DNA of 64,000 nucleotides from Patescibacteria group bacterium (lineage in GTDB: Bacteria; Patescibacteriota; Minisyncoccia; UBA6257; GWB1-50-10): positions 42,262 to 106,261 of the forward strand of contig JANBVK010000001.1 in the NCBI GenBank assembly GCA_024239035.1. Reading direction: 5' to 3'. How positions within the stretch are numbered: position 1 is the stretch's first letter; each line of letters begins with the position of its first letter. The notes below the pieces were generated by a model that saw only the letters and a program-made list of their open reading frames with translations, had not been told where the DNA came from and ran no database searches. The position numbers were made by a program, and so were the translations under genes. Positions 2,803 through 57,248 of this stretch are shown piece after piece.

Positions 2803-3975
2803 GTGGAGATACAGAAAATTTACATCGGGGCGTGGTTTCAGAGAACGCCTCTACACTTGTCGGAGATTTATGATTTCCTGACGGGCAAAGATTCCCCACT
2901 TGAACTCGATAAGAAAAAACTCAAGAAGTTACTGCAAGATCTTCAGATTCAGGAGCTTAAGCTGGTGCCGTCTGATCTCGATTATATCAATGTCTCAACT
3001 ACAAAGGGCATCAGTTTTAGAATATATGAGGATGGCTTAGTTCGGTTAGAAAAAGGGAACACAGAGTTGGCGCAGGATATCGAGCAACTTAGAAATTATT
3101 ACGAAAAAAAACTCTCGCCCGCGATAAGTTATCTTTTTATTTTGGGAGCACCCATACCGAAAGAACTCGCTAATATTAAGAACATTTATCCTTACTTCGT
3201 TGTGTTGCGAAATGCCGACAAGGAAGACATTTATAAAATAATTAAAGAGCACGGACAGAAAAAGCATTTTGAAATCCGCCAAAAGACATTTGAGGTGTAT
3301 CGAGGAGATAAGCTCTATATCATTAACAACCTTTCTGAAGATTTACTTTCGATTGAAAAGTTCATAGAGGAGAATATATTTATTCGCGAGTATAAAAGCC
3401 AACTTCACCGTTATTTAAACCTTCACAGAATTATTTGGGAGCGCATAGCGGACATTAAAGAAAAAGGAGAAATCAAGGGGCGAGACATTGGATTGTTTAA
3501 GAATAAGATGGAAGAGTATGACAAAACAATTAATTTGATTGATGCTCGTATTAACCAAATGGATACTTTTGTCTCGACGCGCAGCAGAGTGGTACAAGAT
3601 AACCCGTCCCTTAAGCCATTTCTTGAGATATTACAATTCAAGCACGAGACATTATCCGACACATTAAATTACATCAAGGATTTATGGAAAATGACACAAG
3701 AGTACGTCAAGTCCGCACTCAACATCTTCGCAGAGCTCCAAGCAAAAAGTACTGAGGGCGCAGTCAAGAACTTAACGGTAGTGACCTCGATGGGTGTCGG
3801 TGCGACACTGATCGGTCTCTTTACAAAGAAACTTCCCAGCTTAACATTCGATGGATTCGTTTACTTTCTTGTTGTTGCCGGGATCGGATATGCAGCTCAT
3901 AGGATAATAGCCCTTATTTACGCAAGGAAGAAATATTCTATTAAGGATATTAAAATCGCTAAAGATATTAAATAG
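2803..3975 (+). CDS. hypothetical protein, large soluble domain plus two C-terminal TM helices
   Basis: 390 aa; C-terminal TM1-loop-TM2 topology like CorA, but no GMN motif, so no transporter call is made. Confidence 0.5.
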   Translation: MEIQKIYIGAWFQRTPLHLSEIYDFLTGKDSPLELDKKKLKKLLQDLQIQELKLVPSDLDYINVSTTKGISFRIYEDGLVRLEKGNTELAQDIEQLRNYYEKKLSPAISYLFILGAPIPKELANIKNIYPYFVVLRNADKEDIYKIIKEHGQKKHFEIRQKTFEVYRGDKLYIINNLSEDLLSIEKFIEENIFIREYKSQLHRYLNLHRIIWERIADIKEKGEIKGRDIGLFKNKMEEYDKTINLIDARINQMDTFVSTRSRVVQDNPSLKPFLEILQFKHETLSDTLNYIKDLWKMTQEYVKSALNIFAELQAKSTEGAVKNLTVVTSMGVGATLIGLFTKKLPSLTFDGFVYFLVVAGIGYAAHRIIALIYARKKYSIKDIKIAKDIK

Positions 3976-4250: not shown

Positions 4251-4610
4251 GGGAGGAAGAAAATGGTACATGAAGCATTAATGCGGGAACTCCCAAAGGA
4301 TCATGAAAGGGTGTCCGAAGACGGTATTTTCTACATTCGAGACAACAGTGGATCGTGGTCGGTTGTTGTTTTGGCTCCGGTCTTGGTTACTTGTGGAGGT
4401 GAAAATGGAAAGGGTAGAGCGACTCATCTCGCAAGGTGTTTCAATAATGTTTGGAATGAAGAAGTTGGAAAATAAACCGCCGGGTCATTATAAAATCCGC
4501 CAATAAAAAAGGGTCTGCTCTTTTGGCGGATTCTTTTTATATAAATAGCTTGTCCAGTGGGGGAGTAAACAAAAAACCGCTGCTGCGCTGTAACACGCGG
4601 CAACGGTAAT

Positions 4611-4850
4611 TTAGTTAAGGTTGGGTTGTTGTGGTCTGGGTAAAGAACATAGCGTGGATGGGTTAAGTGGCCACGGGGTAGGTAACTCACCCGGTGGCCC
4701 TGTAAGTTCAACAAGAACATCATCACGCGTGAACCCGATGACCAGATATATCTCCCCAAAAAAATCACCTTCTTTTACAACCATTACTTGTTGCCCACGA
4801 CGAAATCCAAACTTTGATTCTTCGCCTGTATCCTCAAAAGGATTGGTCAT
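4611..4850 (-). CDS. hypothetical small protein in GC-rich patch
   Basis: 79 aa; GAAAGG-like RBS before ATG; hairpin plus TTTTTT after stop at about 4560-4600. Confidence 0.35.
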   Translation of the reverse strand: MTNPFEDTGEESKFGFRRGQQVMVVKEGDFFGEIYLVIGFTRDDVLVELTGPPGELPTPWPLNPSTLCSLPRPQQPNLN

Positions 4851-5010
4851 AACAAACCTTTCTCATGTAGTGTTCTAAGAAAAATGTAGCAGAACTCTCT
4901 TTATTTGTCTATGAAATTGCTGTCAGAGAATTCCCCTCTAGCGACCCAGGTGTCTCAAATTCGCGAGTAGAAAAATCGTTCAAAAACCTTTACAATGTCT
5001 GAATAGTTTT

Positions 5011-7867: not shown

Positions 7868-10845
<2,978 letters not shown>

Positions 10846-10896: not shown

Positions 10897-11010
10897 TGCC
10901 GGTGTTTTATCTACGCGTGTCCCACCTCATTCCATTCCGAACTGAGAAGTGAAAACGTGTAGATCCGATGATACTGAGCCTTGAGCTTGGGACAGTAGGA
11001 TGTGCCGGCG
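10897..11010 (+). rRNA. rrf: 5S ribosomal RNA
   Basis: CCGAACTGAGAAGTGAAAACG core; helix I gccggtg/tgccggc; flanking processing stem gagctcttaca(10886)/tgtaagagct(11011). Confidence 0.8.
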
Positions 11011-11036
11011 TGTAAGAGCTTAACTTTTACACTCCT

Positions 11037-12355: not shown

Positions 12356-13492
12356 ATGTCCATCCCGCATCTTAACCAATCTAATTTAAAAAAATGGCGC
12401 GGTAAAACCTGCATATTGCGCGCTGATTTGGATATTAAATCCGGCGAAGAACATATCACTCTTCGAATCCCTGCCATTCTCCCAACAATACATCTACTCT
12501 TAAAACACGAAATTAAAGTAGTGCTCGTGGGTCATAGGGGGCGTCCTACAACACGTAAGCCGACGTTAAGTCTTAATCCTTTTGCAAAACTCATCGCTAA
12601 AAAACTGAAACAAAAAATAACCTTTATCCCTCATTTTAACTTTTCCCGTATCCAGAAACAAATCCAAAAATCAAAAAACCAAGTGTTCCTACTTGAAAAT
12701 CTACGCTTTCTACCCGCTGAACGAAAAAATAGCACCCGACTAGCCAAAACACTCGCTAGCTTAGGTGATTTTTTCGTAAACGATGCCTTTGCCGTCTCGC
12801 ACCATAAAAACGCCTCCGTCGTCGCAATCGCTAAATTCCTGCCATCTTACGCCGGCCTGCATCTTGAGCTTGAAATGCAACGTCTCACATATGTAATGAA
12901 ACATTTTAAACATCCGCTAACAATTATTTTAGGAGGGGTAAAAGTATTAGGCAAAGTAGGGGTTATCCAATATTTTTGGAAGAAAGCCGACCATTTTTTA
13001 TTAGGGGGTGGACCGGCTAACACTTTCTTTATGGCACAAGGTTTGCCAATAGCTGACTCAATCTCTGAGCCACGCGCAGTGCCACTCATAAAAAAATTCA
13101 TCAGTTCGGATAAAATCAAACTGCCGACTGATCTAAAAATTAAAAATCGTCAAATTTTTGACATCGGCCCGCAAACAGTGAGAGAATATGGCAAGCTTAT
13201 CAAGCGTTCCAAAACAATTGTATGGAGTGGTCCTTTAGGTTTATTCGAAAAGAAAGAATTCAGAGAGGGTACGAGGGGAATTTGGAAGGCAGTTTTATCC
13301 GTCAGCCGACGGAACAAAAAGGCATTGATTGTCGTAGGCGGCGGCGAAACCGCTGCATCATTAAAATTAATCACTAATTACAAATCACTAATTACTAGAA
13401 ACAAAAATATTTTTATCTCCACCGGCGGCGGCGCAATGCTGGCATATCTATCTGGAAAGAAATTGCCAGGAATTGAAGTATTAAAAAAATAA
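12356..13492 (+). CDS. pgk: phosphoglycerate kinase
   Basis: ILRADLDIK...ITLRIPAILPTI matches PGK N-terminus (RVDFNVP...RIRAALPTI); VVGGGETAASL matches the GGGD(T/S)A hinge motif; TATAAT lies 11 nt before the start. Confidence 0.85.
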   Translation: MSIPHLNQSNLKKWRGKTCILRADLDIKSGEEHITLRIPAILPTIHLLLKHEIKVVLVGHRGRPTTRKPTLSLNPFAKLIAKKLKQKITFIPHFNFSRIQKQIQKSKNQVFLLENLRFLPAERKNSTRLAKTLASLGDFFVNDAFAVSHHKNASVVAIAKFLPSYAGLHLELEMQRLTYVMKHFKHPLTIILGGVKVLGKVGVIQYFWKKADHFLLGGGPANTFFMAQGLPIADSISEPRAVPLIKKFISSDKIKLPTDLKIKNRQIFDIGPQTVREYGKLIKRSKTIVWSGPLGLFEKKEFREGTRGIWKAVLSVSRRNKKALIVVGGGETAASLKLITNYKSLITRNKNIFISTGGGAMLAYLSGKKLPGIEVLKK

Positions 13493-31290: not shown

Positions 31291-31385
31291 TCCTCCACCG
31301 GGGTTTCGCGCCCGCTCAGTAACCTGAGCGGGCTTTCTCTTTTACGCAAAGGCAAGAAAAAGAAAATGCTCGCGAGGTCTTAACC

Positions 31386-42325: not shown

Positions 42326-42481
42326 TCTGTTTATTTTCTAATTTAAAAATTCGACCTTGTTTTAATAATGCTAACACATCTCTACTTTTTGGGTTATCCA
42401 CATGCCGATTTTCCCCAAGAACGAAGTGATTGGCTGAAAAATCGAGCATCCCGAGAAGCAAAGCGACGAGGGACAGCAAAA

Positions 42482-51148: not shown

Positions 51149-54100
51149 TTATTTCCTCCAATACACCTTAAAATTCTCAATTTCAGAAACTAACTCTTTT
51201 GCCGATTGGCCGTTGTACTGAATAGCTCTATCATCCACATATACATATGCAATGGGTTTCCCTGGGTTCTTTCCCTGCAATTCCAGATTGTGATTGATAA
51301 AATCAAATGGAATTGAAAACTTTTTGCAGTATTTTTCTAAAAATTCATTCCCCCGTGTTGAATGAATCAAGATCCGGTATCCCCTCTCCCTTAATGTTTT
51401 GATTGTCTCTACTACCTCCTGTATTGGCTCTTTAATATCGTCCGGGGACACGAAACCGGTATATTTAGCGATTGTTCCGTCAAAATCAAAAGCAATAATT
51501 CTTTCTTTAGGCACAGGGTTAATTCTACTATAACAGTCAAACGAGTGAACCGATACATTAGGGATTCTTTGGAATATTTCTTTGACTTCTGATAAATTCT
51601 TCGCCTTATCATTGTCAACAACCAGTAAAATCCCGTGCGACGCGCCGAAACCGTATATGTATCGGCTCATACTGACATACGAGGGAGATCGATCTATTTT
51701 TGTACCTTTGAGATCAGTACTGGAGGTGAGTTTAGTTTCGACCACAATGGGGCCAACGAAACCATATCTAACAAGGAAGTCTACCTTTTTACCGTCAAGT
51801 AGTTCTACCTCTCTATCTACATCAACTTCAAAGCCACGTTTTAACATAATTTGTTCGATTTTCGATTTGAGAGTCTTCTGAATAAGCTTCTCGTACGCCT
51901 GCTGTTTCGCGTCGTAAACCTTTTCACCAAGTATGAGGTCGTACGCGCCCTCGCCCTCAATCCACCGCCTCAAGTCTGTTTCCAGAGCGTCTTGAAGCTG
52001 TCTAAATAGGTCTGTAGAGGTTAATATCTTCTTATCATCATACGCTCGGGCATCATTGTATTTCTTTATTGCTTCTGAAATATTACGGGGTTTGCCTAAA
52101 TAGCCTAGATAGGACCGCCGGAGGTTTATCATCCGACTGGCAAGCCAATTCGCTCCGTCTCGGTCTTTCATTTCGGCAATTTTTCTCTCAAGCTGCCGCA
52201 GGGGATCGTAAACACGTTCGTCCTTTAGATTATCAAAGTATGCGTACACTATGCTCCAAAGATACTCCGCATACGCCTGAAACTCCTTGCTCCGGGCGAA
52301 TACACCCATGGCTTCCTCCAATAATTTAAGGTAGTCTGGTTCATAGCCATGGTGTTTGAGATCCATGAGTGGCTTAGCAAAACTCTTGCTGTGCTCTATT
52401 TCTTCTTCAAGACTATTTACTTTGTGCATGCCTGGGAGTCGTATGAATGCTGCTGCCCTTTGAACCACTTCACGCAACCGCCACTTGATTGCCTCTGCGT
52501 CACCCTGGGAAGTAATGAGGAGCCCATTGGCAATGTAGGCAAGTTTTTTCTCGTCCTCATTTTTACTTTCCTTGTAGAGGTTGAATATTTCTTTAAGGAA
52601 GGTGGGGTCAGAAGAAAGCGTACCAACGACGGTGAGTGATTGCTCCCGAGTGTATCTGTCGAGAGCGGATTCTTTAATGAAACCTTTTAGAATAGGGATA
52701 GCTTCAACGACATGATATTGCTCTACTGCCTCCACGAAGCTAGAAGTCATATGTTGCCAGAGATCCGATTTTCTACTTTTGTACACCTTAAGCACTCCCT
52801 CCATTTCTCCGGGCTTTATATCTTTTACTAACTCAAAGATAGTTTTGAGTTCGTCGTTGTAAGCAAAGGGAATGAAATTGAGGATATTCTGCCGAAAAGG
52901 GGTTATATCAATTTCAAGATGCTTTGCGGTAACGAGAGCGTCACCGAACACGAACACTGAACTACTGGTCGTATAAGTCTTGGAGCCGTCGTGTTGCGCT
53001 GTGATGGTAAGATCGTGCTTTACGGGGTCAACGAATTTGAAAATCGTACCTGTGATGAGTTCGGCAAGACGCTTTTTCTCATCGGTCGACACGAGGGGTT
53101 CTAGGCACTTGATATTTTTATTGTAAAACTCAAATACGGAATTACTGAATTTCCCTGGATTAGGTTCCAAAAGTGTCCGAAATTGTTGCAGGAGCTTTTC
53201 ATTCTGCATTTCGGTATGCGTATCCGGTTTTGCGCGTGCCTCCTCCCACTGCTTATATTCCTCGGAGAGCAGGGACCGGCCAGCTTCGTATATCTCATTA
53301 GCCCCTTCTCTTTTCGAGAATTTCATCCTTGACATGACTGAAGCCGCGGAGTCTTTCTCTCCCATTGCAATCATTACTTCGATATAGCGCGGCACGTCTT
53401 CTTTCTCAATAACCTCCGCAAAAAATCTGTGCGCGAAATACAGACCAGTTTTGCCATCCTCGCTTTTCTTTATACGCTCGACCATTTCGGTGACGAAATT
53501 CGGGTCGCCCCTCCGCAGAAGTTTCCACAGACCAACGATAAACGTGGAGTGCTCCGCGTCATGTGCGATGTTGTAGTTTACGGAGCGCACCAGCGTCTCC
53601 TTGCACAGCTTTTTTATTTCGTCGTCAAGAACAGCTTCGATGTGTTCAACAAGTACGTGGTCTTCATCCTGGAATATCCGCGTATCGTTGATGAACTCGC
53701 GCCGGAAGTTCTCATCTACGTTGTACGTTTTTAAAAAGCTCTCTATCGAAGCTCTTTTCTTTAATGCGAAAATACCGTACCTACCGTGGAATTCGTTTCT
53801 CCTGATAGCCTCGAAAAAGTAACCAAGGGATTTTGGATTTTCAGGATTGAGCTCCACACACATATCGAGAAATTCCCTCCTTACAAGCTCGTCCGACTCC
53901 ATGAGATTGGGCAGTTCATCTATGACCGACGGATCACGCAGCCATGTGAGCGCCAGGAGCGCGTGCCGCTGCAGCACGCCGTTTTCGTTTTTGTCGCCCG
54001 CGTACTCGATGAGTTTGCCGCGCCAATATGACCGATCTAACGAGACACCCCGTCTAAACAGGTAAGCGATCACGTAGACGATGTTTCCGAGCGGCACGAA

Positions 54101-55504
54101 ACGAGCAGCATTTTTTTCTTTATCCGCTTTTGTGATTCCCGCTTTAAGTTTTCCCTCAAGCGTGTTGTCGAAAAAGCTTGGTAATGCTGAAGTGAGTTGG
54201 CCGGGCAACCATTGCAGAGTTCGCTGATGGTAATCCATAGCAAGTATAAATATCTGACGTCGGAGTTCCAATGGTACGTTGCGCGGATCTACCCTACTTA
54301 GAAACACCAAGAAACCCTCGTCGATAAGCTTGAATTGTGTGCCGCGCAGGCCCGAAAAATCAACAAGTTGTCCGAGTAAATCCGGCCGCATGTCTACCAA
54401 GAACGTCAGCGCGTTAAACCATGTTGGGTACATTTCTTTAGCGTCAGGGTCGATTGCAAAGCCAGCCGCCGCCCGGTTTGGATCGGGAAAGCGCGATATC
54501 TCTTTGGCGGCGAGATACTCTTGAAACTCCGTATTATCAAACTCGACCGTGTCCACATTATTTTTCAGCAGAGATTTATCGAAGAAAATTTCAAGTTCAA
54601 TTTGTGTGAGAGCCACAAGTTTTAGGTCAGATTTTATTTCGTCGAAAAAAGTCATAAGCTCATCCTTAGAGATTACATTTGTTTGGTATATCTCCATGGT
54701 GAGGGCGAGTTTTTCCAGCACACGCTTTATGATGGCACGTTTGTCAGCATTAAGTTTCTTATCTTCGAGTTCAAGCTTCGAGTAAATGAAATACTCGAAA
54801 AGTTTGTTGCGTGAGACCTCAGCAGCGGCTGGGATCCCTTTTTCCTCCAAGAATTTCTCCAGATATGAAAGGTATCGAGGTATCTGTATAACGAGCATTC
54901 TATGACTGAAAGGCATAATCCGACCCAGCAACGCGTCTATGTCGCTATCGGAATGTTTCGCTGCTCGTAGATACTCCCGTACCTGCCCTTGAGTGAATGG
55001 AGAAATAGTTATGAAACGGTAGTTGGGAAATGACGTGGCGTGTTGGTTAATAAAAATCCACCGAGAGGACAAAAATATAGGTAGGTTGGGATACCTAGTG
55101 GAAACCTCCTCGATTTTTTGCAGAACCGCTGGAAACAAGCTTGACTGAACCTCGTCCAGAGCATCTAGTAAGAGCGCTTTTGGTGCTTCAGTTTCAGTCG
55201 TCACAAAAATGTCAATGCGATCCATGGCGTTTGGTTGTCGAAGACCAACCAGCTCCGTCACACACCCATCCGTATCAAGTTGATCCTTTATCTTGCCGAG
55301 AAGCATAGATTTGCCAACGCCCGGTTCTCCCACAATTAGAGTACGCTGGCCTTTAATAATATCTACAATTCCAAGGCGTTCCTCGTCGTCAAAAATTGAG
55401 ACTCCTTGGAATTTATCGTAAAACTCCTTAGCCTCGGCGAATATCGAGTAGATCTTTGTGATAGGGATGATGTATTTATCAGCACTATTAATTTTTGTAG
55501 TCAT
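51149..55504 (-). CDS. 1451-aa NACHT/STAND-type NTPase fused to C-terminal PD-(D/E)xK nuclease-like and HAD phosphatase-like modules
   Basis: Walker A GEPGVGKS; Walker B LLLDALDEV; FLSSR (TSR-like); about 900-aa helical repeat region; VDFLV...VVETK (D..E-x-K); IIAFDFDGT / ILIHST / GKP...YVYVDDRA (HAD motifs I-IV). Confidence 0.8.
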   Translation of the reverse strand: MTTKINSADKYIIPITKIYSIFAEAKEFYDKFQGVSIFDDEERLGIVDIIKGQRTLIVGEPGVGKSMLLGKIKDQLDTDGCVTELVGLRQPNAMDRIDIFVTTETEAPKALLLDALDEVQSSLFPAVLQKIEEVSTRYPNLPIFLSSRWIFINQHATSFPNYRFITISPFTQGQVREYLRAAKHSDSDIDALLGRIMPFSHRMLVIQIPRYLSYLEKFLEEKGIPAAAEVSRNKLFEYFIYSKLELEDKKLNADKRAIIKRVLEKLALTMEIYQTNVISKDELMTFFDEIKSDLKLVALTQIELEIFFDKSLLKNNVDTVEFDNTEFQEYLAAKEISRFPDPNRAAAGFAIDPDAKEMYPTWFNALTFLVDMRPDLLGQLVDFSGLRGTQFKLIDEGFLVFLSRVDPRNVPLELRRQIFILAMDYHQRTLQWLPGQLTSALPSFFDNTLEGKLKAGITKADKEKNAARFVPLGNIVYVIAYLFRRGVSLDRSYWRGKLIEYAGDKNENGVLQRHALLALTWLRDPSVIDELPNLMESDELVRREFLDMCVELNPENPKSLGYFFEAIRRNEFHGRYGIFALKKRASIESFLKTYNVDENFRREFINDTRIFQDEDHVLVEHIEAVLDDEIKKLCKETLVRSVNYNIAHDAEHSTFIVGLWKLLRRGDPNFVTEMVERIKKSEDGKTGLYFAHRFFAEVIEKEDVPRYIEVMIAMGEKDSAASVMSRMKFSKREGANEIYEAGRSLLSEEYKQWEEARAKPDTHTEMQNEKLLQQFRTLLEPNPGKFSNSVFEFYNKNIKCLEPLVSTDEKKRLAELITGTIFKFVDPVKHDLTITAQHDGSKTYTTSSSVFVFGDALVTAKHLEIDITPFRQNILNFIPFAYNDELKTIFELVKDIKPGEMEGVLKVYKSRKSDLWQHMTSSFVEAVEQYHVVEAIPILKGFIKESALDRYTREQSLTVVGTLSSDPTFLKEIFNLYKESKNEDEKKLAYIANGLLITSQGDAEAIKWRLREVVQRAAAFIRLPGMHKVNSLEEEIEHSKSFAKPLMDLKHHGYEPDYLKLLEEAMGVFARSKEFQAYAEYLWSIVYAYFDNLKDERVYDPLRQLERKIAEMKDRDGANWLASRMINLRRSYLGYLGKPRNISEAIKKYNDARAYDDKKILTSTDLFRQLQDALETDLRRWIEGEGAYDLILGEKVYDAKQQAYEKLIQKTLKSKIEQIMLKRGFEVDVDREVELLDGKKVDFLVRYGFVGPIVVETKLTSSTDLKGTKIDRSPSYVSMSRYIYGFGASHGILLVVDNDKAKNLSEVKEIFQRIPNVSVHSFDCYSRINPVPKERIIAFDFDGTIAKYTGFVSPDDIKEPIQEVVETIKTLRERGYRILIHSTRGNEFLEKYCKKFSIPFDFINHNLELQGKNPGKPIAYVYVDDRAIQYNGQSAKELVSEIENFKVYWRK

Positions 55505-55615
55505 ATTTTTACTTCATTAATCCTCCAATCCCCCACTCTAGAACACTATAAATACAAAAATATCCCGCTACAAGAGCGGGATATCAAACCATCCTAACCT
55601 CCTCGCCATAATCCC

Positions 55616-55654
55616 GAAATACGTATTTTAATACGTATTTAAATACGTACTTTT
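55616..55654. promoter_or_regulatory. three tandem AATACGTATT palindromes (12-13 bp period)
   Basis: aaatacgtatttt aatacgtattta aatacgtactttt, read directly, upstream of the STAND gene. Confidence 0.5.
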
Positions 55655-55689
55655 ATTATACCTTTCCAACCCCTCAACAAACCAGAGAA

Positions 55690-55800
55690 TGATATGACGC
55701 GTCATATCACCTCTTCCACCACTCTCCAGAAACAGTATGACATGTCATACTGTTCATCTTCACAACAAATAGGGGTGTGATGACATGTCATCACACCCCT
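55690..55800. promoter_or_regulatory. three perfect palindromes (20, 24, 30 bp) sharing core ATGAC-NN-GTCAT with centres 43 bp apart
   Basis: tgatatgacgcgtcatatca (55690-55709); aacagtatgacatgtcatactgtt (55731-55754); aggggtgtgatgacatgtcatcacacccct (55771-55800). Confidence 0.6.
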
Positions 55801-56062
55801 TTAAACCAACCATTCGCTAACCCACTACAAGAGCGGGTTATTTTTATTAATACTGGGCAGGGAAATCGAACAAAATAATTTGACTAGCAAATTATTTTTT
55901 TAAAACCCTCGGTTTTAAATCCGTTGCACTCATTCCTACACAGGGGAACCTCGAACTTTCCCCCGACCCCCTGCCTACCGGCAGGCAGGCCTTTCGTGTT
56001 CGAATCATTGCTGCCGGGTACTTCAACTCACTGCGCTCGCTCAGCACGGGCAGGGATTCTCA

Positions 56063-56305
56063 CTACTCTCTTTTAACTAAATCTAACTTCTTTTCTCTGC
56101 GCCAACCTTTTATCTGTGCCTCACGTTTTAATGCCTCATTCTTCGTCTTGAATGTTTCTGTGTAAATAATCTTTTCTACTTTATGCGATGCAGTATAGTG
56201 ACCACCAATCTTGTCTTTGTGTTCCTTAAGTCTCCGTTCAATATCATTCGTGATACCGGTATATAAGCTAGCGTCTTCACATTGAACAATGTAGACATAG
56301 TACAT
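56063..56305 (-). CDS. GIY-YIG nuclease family small protein (UPF0213-like)
   Basis: MYYVYIVQCEDASLYTGITNDIERRLKEH (GIY..YIG with R and E); 80 aa. Confidence 0.75.
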   Translation of the reverse strand: MYYVYIVQCEDASLYTGITNDIERRLKEHKDKIGGHYTASHKVEKIIYTETFKTKNEALKREAQIKGWRREKKLDLVKRE

Positions 56306-56410
56306 AATTTGAAAGAGGTCCTTCGGCTTCGCTCAGGACACTTCGCCTCGCGTTATTGTTGAAGATGGCTTGCACTGAGCGAGCCCTTTATTTAAGGGCG
56401 AGTCGAAGTG

Positions 56411-56481
56411 CTGCCGGGCAGGGATTCGAACCCCGATACCCAGGACCAAAACCTGGTGTCCTACCGTTAGACGACCCGGCA
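56411..56481 (-). tRNA. tRNA-Gln (anticodon TTG), no encoded CCA
   Basis: Minus-strand cloverleaf TGCCGGG...CCAGG-TTTTGGT-CCTGG...GGTTCGAATCCC...CCCGGCA; U1:A72 typical of bacterial tRNA-Gln. Confidence 0.75.
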
Positions 56482-56496
56482 AATACAAAAAACCTA

Positions 56497-56536
56497 TTTT
56501 AAAATTCTGACACAAATCCCCGTTTCTAGCAATTTT
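56497..56536. repeat. 40-bp conserved element tttaaaattctgacacaaatccccgtttctagcaatttt (copy 1), immediately upstream of tRNA-Gln
   Basis: 37/40 identical to 59491-59530, which lies upstream of purB. Confidence 0.7.
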
Positions 56537-56612
56537 TACAGCCACCCCACAACGTCTCCCAACAAACGTCCTGACGCCTATCAGGATATTTTTTTGTGCT
56601 AAAATATACAAT

Positions 56613-57248
56613 GTGAAATTATATTTTGTTCGTCACGGAGAAACACAAACCAATAAAAAGGAAACCATTAGTGCGGCGGACGATAAACTTACATCGCTTG
56701 GCGTCAAACAAGCAGAAATTCTTGCAAAAAGATTCTCTAATATTACCGTTGATCTAGTACTGGCAAGTCCCTATCTTCGTGCTCAGAAAACAGCGGAAAT
56801 AATAAATACTACTCTTAAAAAGGAGATTGTCTCAACCAAGCTCTTAAAAGAAAGGAAATGGCCTAAAGAAATTGAGGGTGAACCACTTCAAGATCCCAGT
56901 GTAACAAAGTTATTAAACTTAGTAAGAGATAAGAGCTTAATCAACCCAAAGTGGCATTATAGTGACGAAGAAAACTTTTTCGATACAAAAGAAAGAGCAC
57001 GGCTATTTTTGGATTATCTTAATAAATTTTCTGAAAAATACATTCTTGCTGTTGCGCATGAATATATTTTAAAAGTAATTCTAGCCGTAATGATGCACGG
57101 TGAGAGTTTGTCTTATGAAATTTTTAGAAATTTCTTCCTTTTCACAAAATTAGATAATACCTCCCTAACGATCTGTGAAAAAAAGGAAAATGATCGCTGG
57201 AGACTTATCGTTCTGAACGATATCATGCACCTTGGAGAGATAAAATAG
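56613..57248 (+). CDS. histidine phosphatase family protein (phosphoglycerate mutase-like)
   Basis: LYFVRHGETQTN RHG catalytic motif; AHEYIL second His region. Confidence 0.75.
   Translation: MKLYFVRHGETQTNKKETISAADDKLTSLGVKQAEILAKRFSNITVDLVLASPYLRAQKTAEIINTTLKKEIVSTKLLKERKWPKEIEGEPLQDPSVTKLLNLVRDKSLINPKWHYSDEENFFDTKERARLFLDYLNKFSEKYILAVAHEYILKVILAVMMHGESLSYEIFRNFFLFTKLDNTSLTICEKKENDRWRLIVLNDIMHLGEIK

Follow-up and report, generated by a model that had tools for sequence, protein, structure and literature searches.

How did the 3' end of a tRNA gene come to be repeated on either side of a very small nuclease gene? This question is raised by a 64-kb stretch of Patescibacteria DNA (64,000 nt, here called the window) that carries a single tRNA gene, tRNA-Gln(TTG), on which ARAGORN and Rfam agree with the original prediction. 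Partial copies of the end of this tRNA recur downstream, beyond a gene for an 80-aa GIY-YIG nuclease. We interpret the locus as a selfish cassette of ~350 nt that hitchhikes on the 3' part of tRNA-Gln and consists of a leader built from hairpins with G·A pairs (the GA-hairpin leader) and the nuclease gene, a reading to which we give a probability of roughly 60%.

A nuclease gene between tRNA-Gln and copies of its 3' end

The cassette has the tRNA-Gln 3' end (56410) as its left border, and its 350 nt up to the first tRNA-end copy (relic 1) hold a structured leader and the 80-aa GIY-YIG gene. The parts of the locus are listed below, where R1 is a covariance model of the GA-hairpin module and labels such as L083 denote fetched loci.

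56410/11-56481, minus strand: tRNA-Gln(TTG), from ARAGORN and Rfam (RF00005, 58 bits); intact, CCA not encoded.
56306-56409, minus strand: leader, 104 nt from tRNA to start codon, in the order module A, spacer, half-module (forming helix P1), module B.
56373-56410, plus strand (antisense to the tRNA): GA-hairpin module A, CACT-GAG-...-CGA-AGTG, abutting the tRNA 3' end; from a pattern scan.
56339-56351, minus strand: 3' strand of helix P1, GCGAGGCGAAGTG, which pairs with 56398-56410 (CACTTCGACTCGC) over 13 nt with 92% complementarity.
56319-56338, minus strand (sense): GA-hairpin module B, TCCT-GAG-CGAAGC-CGA-AGGA, 13 nt before the ATG; R1 26.9 bits, E = 1e-4.
56063-56305, minus strand: GIY-YIG nuclease gene, 80 aa; Pfam PF01541, E = 9e-20.
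56047-56059, minus strand: relic 1a, GAATCCCTGCCCG, exact copy of T-loop, T-stem and acceptor, beginning 4 nt past the stop codon.
56019-56046, minus strand: 28-nt insert within relic 1, GTGCTGAGCGAGCGCAGTGAGTTGAAGTA, a sense-oriented GA-hairpin module that has degenerated slightly, with CGGG on either side.
56009-56018, minus strand: relic 1b, CCCGGCAGCA, exact repeat of the acceptor 3' strand and discriminator.
55872-56008, minus strand: 137-nt filler between relics 1 and 2, with hairpins at 55970-55989, 55904-55919 and 55869-55901.
55855-55871, minus strand: relic 2, GTTCGATTTCCCTGCCC, truncated T-loop-to-acceptor copy; score 27 against the GATTCC tRNA variant of L083.

Read on the plus strand, the terminal 19 nt of tRNA-Gln are TGCTGC-CGGG-CAGGGATTC (56409-56427), and they recur 350-400 nt downstream as two exact pieces, the 13-nt CGGGCAGGGATTC at 56047-56059 (identical to 56415-56427) and the 10-nt TGCTGCCGGG at 56009-56018 (identical to 56409-56418). 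The pieces share a CGGG overlap and lie 28 nt apart (56019-56046), and because they jointly span the full 19-nt tRNA end, what had been counted as the first and second copies is one split copy. The repeat sequences listed in the original prediction are all present in the window; its count of at least three tRNA-end copies reduces to two relics, one of them split by the 28-nt insert. The score of the split copy was reached by 0 of 200 shuffles of the 150 nt after the stop codon, and no further match to the full 19-mer with up to 3 mismatches exists within the 64 kb.

Relic 2 (GTTCGATTTCCCTGCCC) scores 22 against the tRNA of the window and 27 against the GATTCC variant in L083, from which its sole difference is one additional T; no tile in 10 shuffled windows reached a score of 25. 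It is a second, older relic. The proposal that the tRNA-Gln 3' end is an insertion hotspot with nested relics is supported. The 137-nt filler between the relics (55872-56008), which has a homolog in none of the fetched loci, is possibly the remains of an earlier insert.

Could such similarity arise by chance, through the palindromic TTCGAA and a GC-rich acceptor stem? A 14-nt exact chance match to the T-arm lies inside a pgk-like open reading frame (ORF) at 12462-12475, so a 13- or 14-mer alone is not rare, and the "ttcgaatc" at 55999-56006 is weak by itself because TTCGAA is palindromic. The significance of the relics therefore rests on their order, orientation, position right after the stop codon and recurrence elsewhere. 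Both halves of the 19-mer stand in order, in the right orientation and directly past the stop codon, relics occupy the same place in eight other loci, and relic 2 fits the tRNA variant of a sister lineage, which makes chance a scarcely credible explanation.

The GIY-YIG gene had also been described as bracketed by inverted repeats. This repeat was confirmed, pairing 56020-56047 with 56372-56410 around an exact core of 10 nt (GCTCGCTCAG / CTGAGCGAGC), but the view of its arms as the ends of an element is not supported: the arm at the tRNA is module A, a conserved part of the leader, and the other is the insert that splits relic 1, a peculiarity of this locus. The insert resembles the 5' part of the leaders of L003, L005, L007 and L014 more than the local leader, and it gave no match to R1 at E <= 10. 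Among the loci tested, inverted leader copies downstream of the gene were significant only in L024 and L058, with the window's own pair failing the test. A terminal-inverted-repeat transposon or miniature inverted-repeat transposable element was rejected, as inverted repeats at both ends are not a feature of the family.

Recurrence behind Patescibacteria tRNA genes

A homolog scan with the nuclease protein, taking one genome per species, returned 80 loci, and a gene was called linked when a same-strand tRNA ended within 400 nt upstream of it. Such a tRNA 3' end was found 27-281 nt upstream of the nuclease gene in 31 of the 80 loci, for which we estimate a chance expectation below one among 80 genes, given tRNA density. 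The linked tRNA is tRNA-Gln (CTG or TTG) in 24 of the 31 and otherwise Met, Pro, Ala, Phe, Arg or Leu; tRNA 3' ends missed by ARAGORN also precede the gene in L008, L011 (initiator tRNA) and L078 (by eye). Nearly all linked loci are from Patescibacteria, a group also called the candidate phyla radiation (CPR), and non-CPR homologs (Verrucomicrobiota, Acidobacteriota and others) are mostly without a neighbouring tRNA. None of nine viral relatives (<=46% identity) has a tRNA nearby and there is no PHROG match, on which grounds carriage by phages was rejected. The suggestion that the GIY-YIG gene sits in a minimal selfish unit is supported, the cassette belonging to a family that recurs phylum-wide.

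The relics recur as well. Among the 32 loci that offered sufficient downstream sequence, 9 have a significant direct copy of the tRNA 3' end that begins 1-34 nt past the nuclease stop. For most of them the start lies in the T-loop or next to it (GTTCGA, CGAATCC, GAATCC) and the end at the discriminator, as over 20/20 nt in L006 and 22 nt in L017, and in L036 and L054 the acceptor end alone is clearly aligned. In L006 and L013 the apparent original terminator of the tRNA follows the relic. Relics that extend from T-loop to discriminator with the terminator beyond them argue that the inserted unit comprises a tRNA T-loop-to-3' end, the leader and the gene, and that the resident tRNA end was displaced. 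Further loci bear signs of serial replacement, matching the two relics of the window: behind the relic of L017 stand the initial 14 nt of another type of leader, in L044, where the whole tRNA seems to have been replaced, the acceptor sequence of the relic differs from that of the working tRNA, and L022 shows a nested insertion in which 1.15 kb carrying two ORFs separates the tRNA from an older junction.

Occupied and unoccupied tRNA-Gln alleles could be compared in two ways. The nearest named relatives of a neighbouring gene are Giovannonibacteria, at 53-56% identity, and the closest relative found is L083, in which the neighbouring His_Phos protein is 94% identical and the flanks are rearranged. 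[quoted passage not shown] The alignment with related loci that had been proposed as a way to an empty site therefore yields an empty tRNA-Gln in L083, without matching sequence downstream. An empty site was also sought through STAND homologs and rejected, since the surroundings of a 66% homolog are unrelated and contain an integrase.

A metagenome scan with the 31-nt 3' half of the window tRNA returned 12 loci, which include two with leader and nuclease gene (L100 and L101, with 80% and 63% protein identity) and three with the leader only (L092, L094 and L097, the L094 sequence being the same as L097); in the rest there is an ordinary trailer or a terminator, or else a short insert of unrelated sequence. 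In all, 13 tRNA-Gln genes have this 3' half in common. This tRNA-Gln thus exists in occupied and unoccupied form, with differing flanks and so not as a clean isogenic pair. Over the 68/68 available nt the tRNA of L101 is identical to that of the window, yet its leader is different and its nuclease 63% identical. L092 and L100 share 92.5% identity over tRNA and leader only, in otherwise unrelated contexts. Across 26 tRNA-Gln-linked loci, tRNA identity and nuclease identity are uncorrelated (rho = 0.19).

These comparisons bear on the proposal that the pair is a conserved host operon, in which the GIY-YIG protein would have a housekeeping role, such as DNA repair or the processing of tRNA or other RNA, and would have shared a transcript with tRNA-Gln ever since the ancestor of Patescibacteria, and the tRNA-end copies would be debris of local duplication. 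That adjacency is very widespread, that the protein is 65-83% identical in the 120 best of 262 homologs with its active site intact, that each locus holds a single copy, that the leader resembles a regulated 5' untranslated region and that a GIY-YIG domain of such type is fused to a TrmH-like tRNA methyltransferase (PMC1564403) all speak for a host function. We nevertheless consider it rather improbable, since the cassette is present behind some and absent behind others of the tRNA-Gln genes that share one 3' half, a ~91-93% relative lacks it, and it stands behind at least 7 tRNA isotypes; the relics, moreover, are constant in position with a mostly constant T-loop boundary, nested and leader-only states exist, and tRNA and nuclease similarity are not congruent.

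The original prediction had read the repeats as the classic signature of site-specific integration into a tRNA 3' end, essentially a miniature integrative element or the residue of an integrase island: a tyrosine integrase acting in trans at the tRNA-Gln T-loop would have left attL/attR repeats, with the GIY-YIG gene as cargo. Both cassette ends do have a direct repeat of the tRNA 3' part that spans the T-loop through the 3' end, as in tRNA-integrated islands, and integrase sites of the T-loop kind typically show an identity block of this extent. In L104 a phage integrase and an HTH_17 protein neighbour a STAND homolog, and other short inserts with relics of their own stand behind Patescibacteria tRNA-Gln in L049, L034 and L083. 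We still judge an integrase origin to be unlikely. No integrase was found within 12 kb downstream of the tRNA-Gln or among the Pfam-scanned ORFs at 43.4-62.7 kb, and GC content across the region is flat and unremarkable, so an integrase island was rejected; the "classic" reading is also not supported by the direct repeats, which enclose just 350 nt here and, in nine independent loci, just a leader and nuclease gene. The complementary T-stem arm of a core-type site is missing just upstream of the relics (by eye), and the repeats follow the GIY-YIG cassette over several tRNA isotypes. Integrase-borne islands and prophages resemble the cassette in their direct tRNA 3' repeats on both sides of the insert, in the restored tRNA and in the nested relics that accumulate when insertion happens serially, whereas the cassette has no integrase, measures ~0.35 kb and has as its sole gene a nuclease without known strand-rejoining chemistry.

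The short inserts without a GIY-YIG gene behind Patescibacteria tRNA-Gln lie at L049 1043-1140 (with a 22-nt relic 70 nt past the tRNA), L034 496-600 and L083 100-215 (minus strand), and a motif AGTCAGCRCAGT...GGGAGACCG is common to L034, L093 and L101, which suggests that additional element types exploit the same tRNA-Gln hotspot. Two GIY-YIG genes were seen within 1 kb in L088 (3960-4945, Giovannonibacteria), the second (~4600-4857) ending 1 nt before tRNA-Ser(TGA) (by eye), so that the nuclease can sit upstream of a tRNA and several copies per genome are possible. In L010 and L012 (~2960-3000), which belong to different lineages, leader and nuclease are preceded by a conserved ~35-nt non-tRNA sequence, AAAGTTTTCCARTGTTCTCKATTGGCCCTGC, which may mean that the cassette sits at a site other than a tRNA, or that a tRNA end has decayed badly.

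The GA-hairpin module and the leader

The leader of the window is 66-74% identical to those of L003, L004, L005 and L007. Whole-leader alignments with MAFFT and RNAalifold were too gappy for use; the module was aligned in 21 sequences. In the module, a 4-bp stem encloses GAG and CGA, which stand on either side of a variable interior, and some modules have the GAG...CGA unit twice; its G·A/A·G pairs are presumably tandem sheared pairs. The outer stem pairs in the alignment are distributed as CG:11/UA:10, CG:15/AU:4/UA:2 and UA:15/CG:5/UG:1, and these three variable pairs display 21 compensatory double changes and 0 unpaired cells, while G7, A8, G9, C22, G23 and A24 are invariant in all 21 modules. 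The covariation score of 0.38 was reached by 0 of 500 shuffles, and slid controls stayed at or below 0.16.

The module is also specific to the cassette in its placement. Of 34 leaders, 27 have a sense module shortly ahead of the start codon, and a module of opposite orientation lies at offset 0 from the tRNA 3' end in 16/34 cassette-linked tRNAs versus 2/52 others, both of these two being leader-only relics. By pattern scan, modules reach a density of more than 10 per kb in leaders compared with 0.35 per kb elsewhere. Module A of the window scores 17.2 bits with R1 (E = 0.044) and holds a local hairpin insertion, CCC-tttatttaa-GGG. P1 is formed by a half-module paired with the complement of the first module and has 8-18 bp; its onset falls at -2 to +3 from the tRNA end in ~24 loci with widely differing sequences, and in the window its 5' strand (56398-56410, CACTTCGACTCGC) begins at the tRNA-Gln 3' end.

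Rfam 15, which includes hepatitis delta virus (HDV)-like, hammerhead, twister and hatchet families, matched only the tRNA at 55000-57000 at E <= 10, the theta-ribozyme motif itself being perhaps outside Rfam, and gave no leader match in six other loci at E <= 1. It had been foreseen that the tRNA-like fragments might turn out to belong to another structured RNA; this is half true, in that the locus does have a structured element, formed by the leader and not by the tRNA fragments.

The leader might itself be the active part, either as a self-cleaving or processing RNA starting from the tRNA 3' end, like the HDV-like theta ribozymes, or through hairpins that serve as DNA mobility sites for an Slx1-like nuclease, in the manner of repetitive extragenic palindromic (REP) elements or IS200/IS605. 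We find this improbable. No ribozyme family matched in the searches above, and the P1 of 8-18 bp is too long for an HDV-like fold, in which P1 has ~7 bp. Apart from the tandem G·A pairs there is no conserved unpaired core of the kind that ribozymes need, and GIY-YIG enzymes are not known to rejoin DNA. A hammerhead or HDV-like ribozyme in particular was rejected because the core sequences do not fit (by eye) and Rfam gave no match. What lends the idea some weight is the onset of a structured element within ~2 nt of the tRNA 3' end in ~24 loci, for which the placement of theta ribozymes is a precedent (PMC10879173), and the occurrence of modules in both orientations, past the stop codon in L024, L053, L071 and L072, inside relic 1 and alone at 42447-42475, together with the classification of standalone bacterial GIY-YIG proteins as Slx1-like (PMC1564403).

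Comparison with these systems reveals partial likeness. HDV-like theta ribozymes abut phage tRNA 3' ends (PMC10879173) and so share with the leader a structured element within ~1-2 nt of a tRNA 3' end, whereas the leader has no HDV-like fold or Rfam match, has a junction helix of 8-18 bp and precedes a protein gene. REP/RAYT elements, IS200/IS605 ends and integron attC sites likewise have short covarying hairpins with conserved non-Watson-Crick positions, found in either orientation and tied to one nuclease gene; the cassette, unlike them, has a GIY-YIG enzyme rather than an HUH or tyrosine enzyme, its modules are few and tied to tRNA ends, and with one stray copy in 64 kb no dispersal of repeats is evident.

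This stray copy is the lone module TCCC-GAG-AAGCAAAGCGA-CGA-GGGA at 42447-42475 on the plus strand (R1 22.7 bits, E = 0.0016), located in the gap between two pilin-like genes with no tRNA or GIY-YIG gene near and a GAAGTG ~20 nt upstream. A second cassette relic near 42 kb was considered and rejected, since the weak GIY-like and tRNA-end-like matches there fall inside a real pilin-like gene and are attributed to chance. The window further contains 23S rRNA (7869-10845) and 5S rRNA (10897-11011) genes on the plus strand, and a helix of the 23S rRNA (10428-10453) fits the GA-hairpin pattern (17.9 bits), which shows the motif to be a generic RNA fold. A palindrome at 31305-31335 was set aside as an ordinary terminator hairpin in appearance (by eye). 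In L072 (2966-3300) and L024 (2939-3300) the nuclease ORF lies within the structured element, whose 5' half stands before the ATG and whose 3' half, including a GA-hairpin, follows the stop codon just ahead of the next tRNA, much as intervening sequences can have an ORF in their loop.

A possible homing route, its precedents and the surrounding genes

The 80-aa protein matches Pfam PF01541 over residues 1-73 (71.2 bits against a cutoff of 22.6, E = 9e-20) and, over residues 2-78, the structures PDB 1zg2 (E = 1.4e-14) and 1ywl (E = 7.6e-13), which places it with the UPF0213 / Slx1-like standalone type; NCBIfam models gave no match to it. Its size falls in the domain-only class of ~80-110 aa, similar to BH0048 and EF2693, and apart from a short basic C-terminal tail (IKGWRREKK) the entire sequence is GIY-YIG core. 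Y5, Y15, G17, R25, H29 and E62 are invariant in 26 aligned homologs, in which the basic tail is conserved too. From the known motif of the family we take Y5, Y15, R25, H29 and E62 to hold catalytic roles, and with its active-site residues conserved the nuclease looks functional.

How the cassette might spread can be outlined from these features. It would carry its own T-loop-to-3'-end segment, so that the tRNA stays intact and the resident 3' end is displaced to a relic past the nuclease stop. Because most relics begin in the T-loop, we infer that a tRNA gene without the cassette suffers a break within the T-psi-C region or close to it, where the nuclease would cut in the manner of T4 SegB, and is repaired from an occupied copy. 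During repair the left homology arm would be the tRNA body and the right one the relic, which is portable, and the tRNA 3' part, leader and gene would be copied into the broken tRNA gene irrespective of its flanks. As the cassette leaves no room for a promoter, transcription would come from that of the tRNA; a cut by RNase Z after the discriminator would then give an mRNA whose 5' end is flush with P1 and protected by it, and module B beside the start codon may serve translation control or protein binding. At least two rounds of insertion or replacement would account for relics 1 and 2 here, relic 1 having later been disrupted by a stray module.

Several points weigh against a selfish homing cassette. 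All the mechanistic steps, from cleavage and transcription to excision or insertion, are inferred. The 80 aa lack a DNA-binding module for a long recognition site, as a homing endonuclease would have, and next to the larger SegB a bare 80-aa core leaves sequence-specific targeting unexplained. Self-immunity requires an additional assumption, since the occupied tRNA retains the T-psi-C motif. A clean empty site with both flanks matching was not found for the window locus, L083 being wholly different downstream. With the relic kept in just 9 of 32 loci most copies could be old and immobile, and the 64-kb window holds a single cassette. An RNA-level role of the leader is not established either, given that P1 has G-U and A-C pairs at 16:15, with no G-U excess, and that the G·A asymmetry of module A is kept on the strand antisense to the transcript; the folded molecule could accordingly be DNA or antisense RNA rather than the mRNA leader. 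Direct repeats from T-loop to 3' end are also the trace of a tyrosine integrase. Lastly, the split relic, read on the plus strand, aligns with the inverted tRNA-end/leader junction (81% over 48 nt); a simple inversion or fold-back was rejected as its origin, as neither reproduces the sequence (by eye).

SegB is a protein of ~220 aa with DNA-binding modules, and by analogy it is the closest mechanistic precedent for the proposed homing. This GIY-YIG homing endonuclease of phage T4 has a 27-bp site that includes an 11-bp T-psi-C stem-loop motif of tRNA genes, sits in the T4 tRNA gene cluster and drives co-conversion of its own gene and neighbouring tRNA genes (PMC2330249). The two have in common a GIY-YIG gene among tRNA genes, a T-psi-C target that parallels the T-loop start of the relics, and spread with flanking tRNA sequence. 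They differ in that SegB is a larger phage protein without a duplicated tRNA end, whereas the cassette has an 80-aa core, lies in a cellular genome and comes with a relic, a regenerated tRNA end and a structured leader.

Two further systems are related through the protein. Insertions in CPR rRNA genes that are neither group I nor group II introns encode GIY-YIG ORFs, for which the authors judged homing unlikely (PMC11270868). They share with the cassette the phylum, a similar small GIY-YIG ORF and a structural-RNA gene as target; they lie inside rRNA genes, however, with no tRNA linkage, relic or GA-hairpin leader reported (PMC11270868). Proteins of the UPF0213 / YhbQ / Slx1-like group have the same minimal domain and conserved residues as the cassette protein (E = 1e-14; PDB 1zg2, 1ywl; PMC1564403), and differ in having no assigned mobility role and no reported tRNA linkage. 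GIY-YIG cassettes linked to tRNA genes were not found described in a full-text literature search limited to part of the journals, and a prior description is possible. We rate the element as a free-standing homing-type nuclease gene joined to the tRNA-regenerating logic of integrative elements and equipped with a hairpin motif of its own.

A bolder version, which we regard as doubtful, is that GA-hairpin modules and the 80-aa core make up a new kind of mobile element, in which target recognition, for which the protein is not equipped, comes from a folded nucleic acid. The recogniser would be either the leader RNA linked to the tRNA or hairpins that the modules extrude from DNA, and a structure- or RNA-directed nuclease would home into tRNA genes through portable arms of tRNA sequence.

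Patescibacteria have tiny genomes and few recognised mobile elements. If the selfish-cassette reading holds, a phylum-wide ~350-nt element lives behind their tRNA genes, keeping the tRNA working and probably borrowing its promoter; it would be the smallest candidate homing unit on a GIY-YIG core and would account for the many small genes annotated as "GIY-YIG nuclease family protein" in Patescibacteria genomes. The GA-hairpin with its tandem G·A pairs is a new and well-defined motif whose partner and role are testable.

Downstream of the tRNA-Gln lie genes for a STAND protein, a cohesin-domain protein, a NUDIX protein, Tag (3-methyladenine glycosylase), Obg and type II secretion E/F.

51149-55504, minus strand: STAND/NACHT-like protein, 1451 aa; homologs of ~1340-1360 aa cover 91%.

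The extra C-terminal ~100 aa of the STAND protein have a weak HAD-hydrolase match. The best 120 of its 330 homologs are 46-73% identical, carry labels that include Pacebacteria, Dormibacteraeota and Nitrosopumilus and are patchily distributed, and a 66% homolog (L104) adjoins a phage integrase and an HTH_17 protein. This pattern is compatible with accessory, horizontally moving DNA. The idea that the STAND gene is island cargo is unproven: its absence from L083 and the integrase beside the L104 homolog are in keeping with it, but no island boundary or integrase was seen at this locus.

The region upstream of the STAND gene (55560-55850) is packed with repeats, namely three ATGAC(A/G)(T/C)GTCAT palindromes at a spacing of 43 nt (55694, 55737, 55780), three AATACGTATTT units at 55617-55656, and two copies of a CCCGCTACAAGAGCGGG-type hairpin at 55561 and 55818, which are terminator-like and face opposite ways.

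Gene calls are affected at the tRNA itself. A 92-aa ORF (56333-56611, minus strand) in the mechanical list runs over tRNA and leader, overlapping the tRNA, and public gene calls for the same scaffold (L001, 5761-5973) place a 70-aa gene, which also overlaps the tRNA, over the same stretch. Both are almost certainly spurious, and for annotation it is worth noting that relics and leaders behind tRNA genes produce such ORFs.

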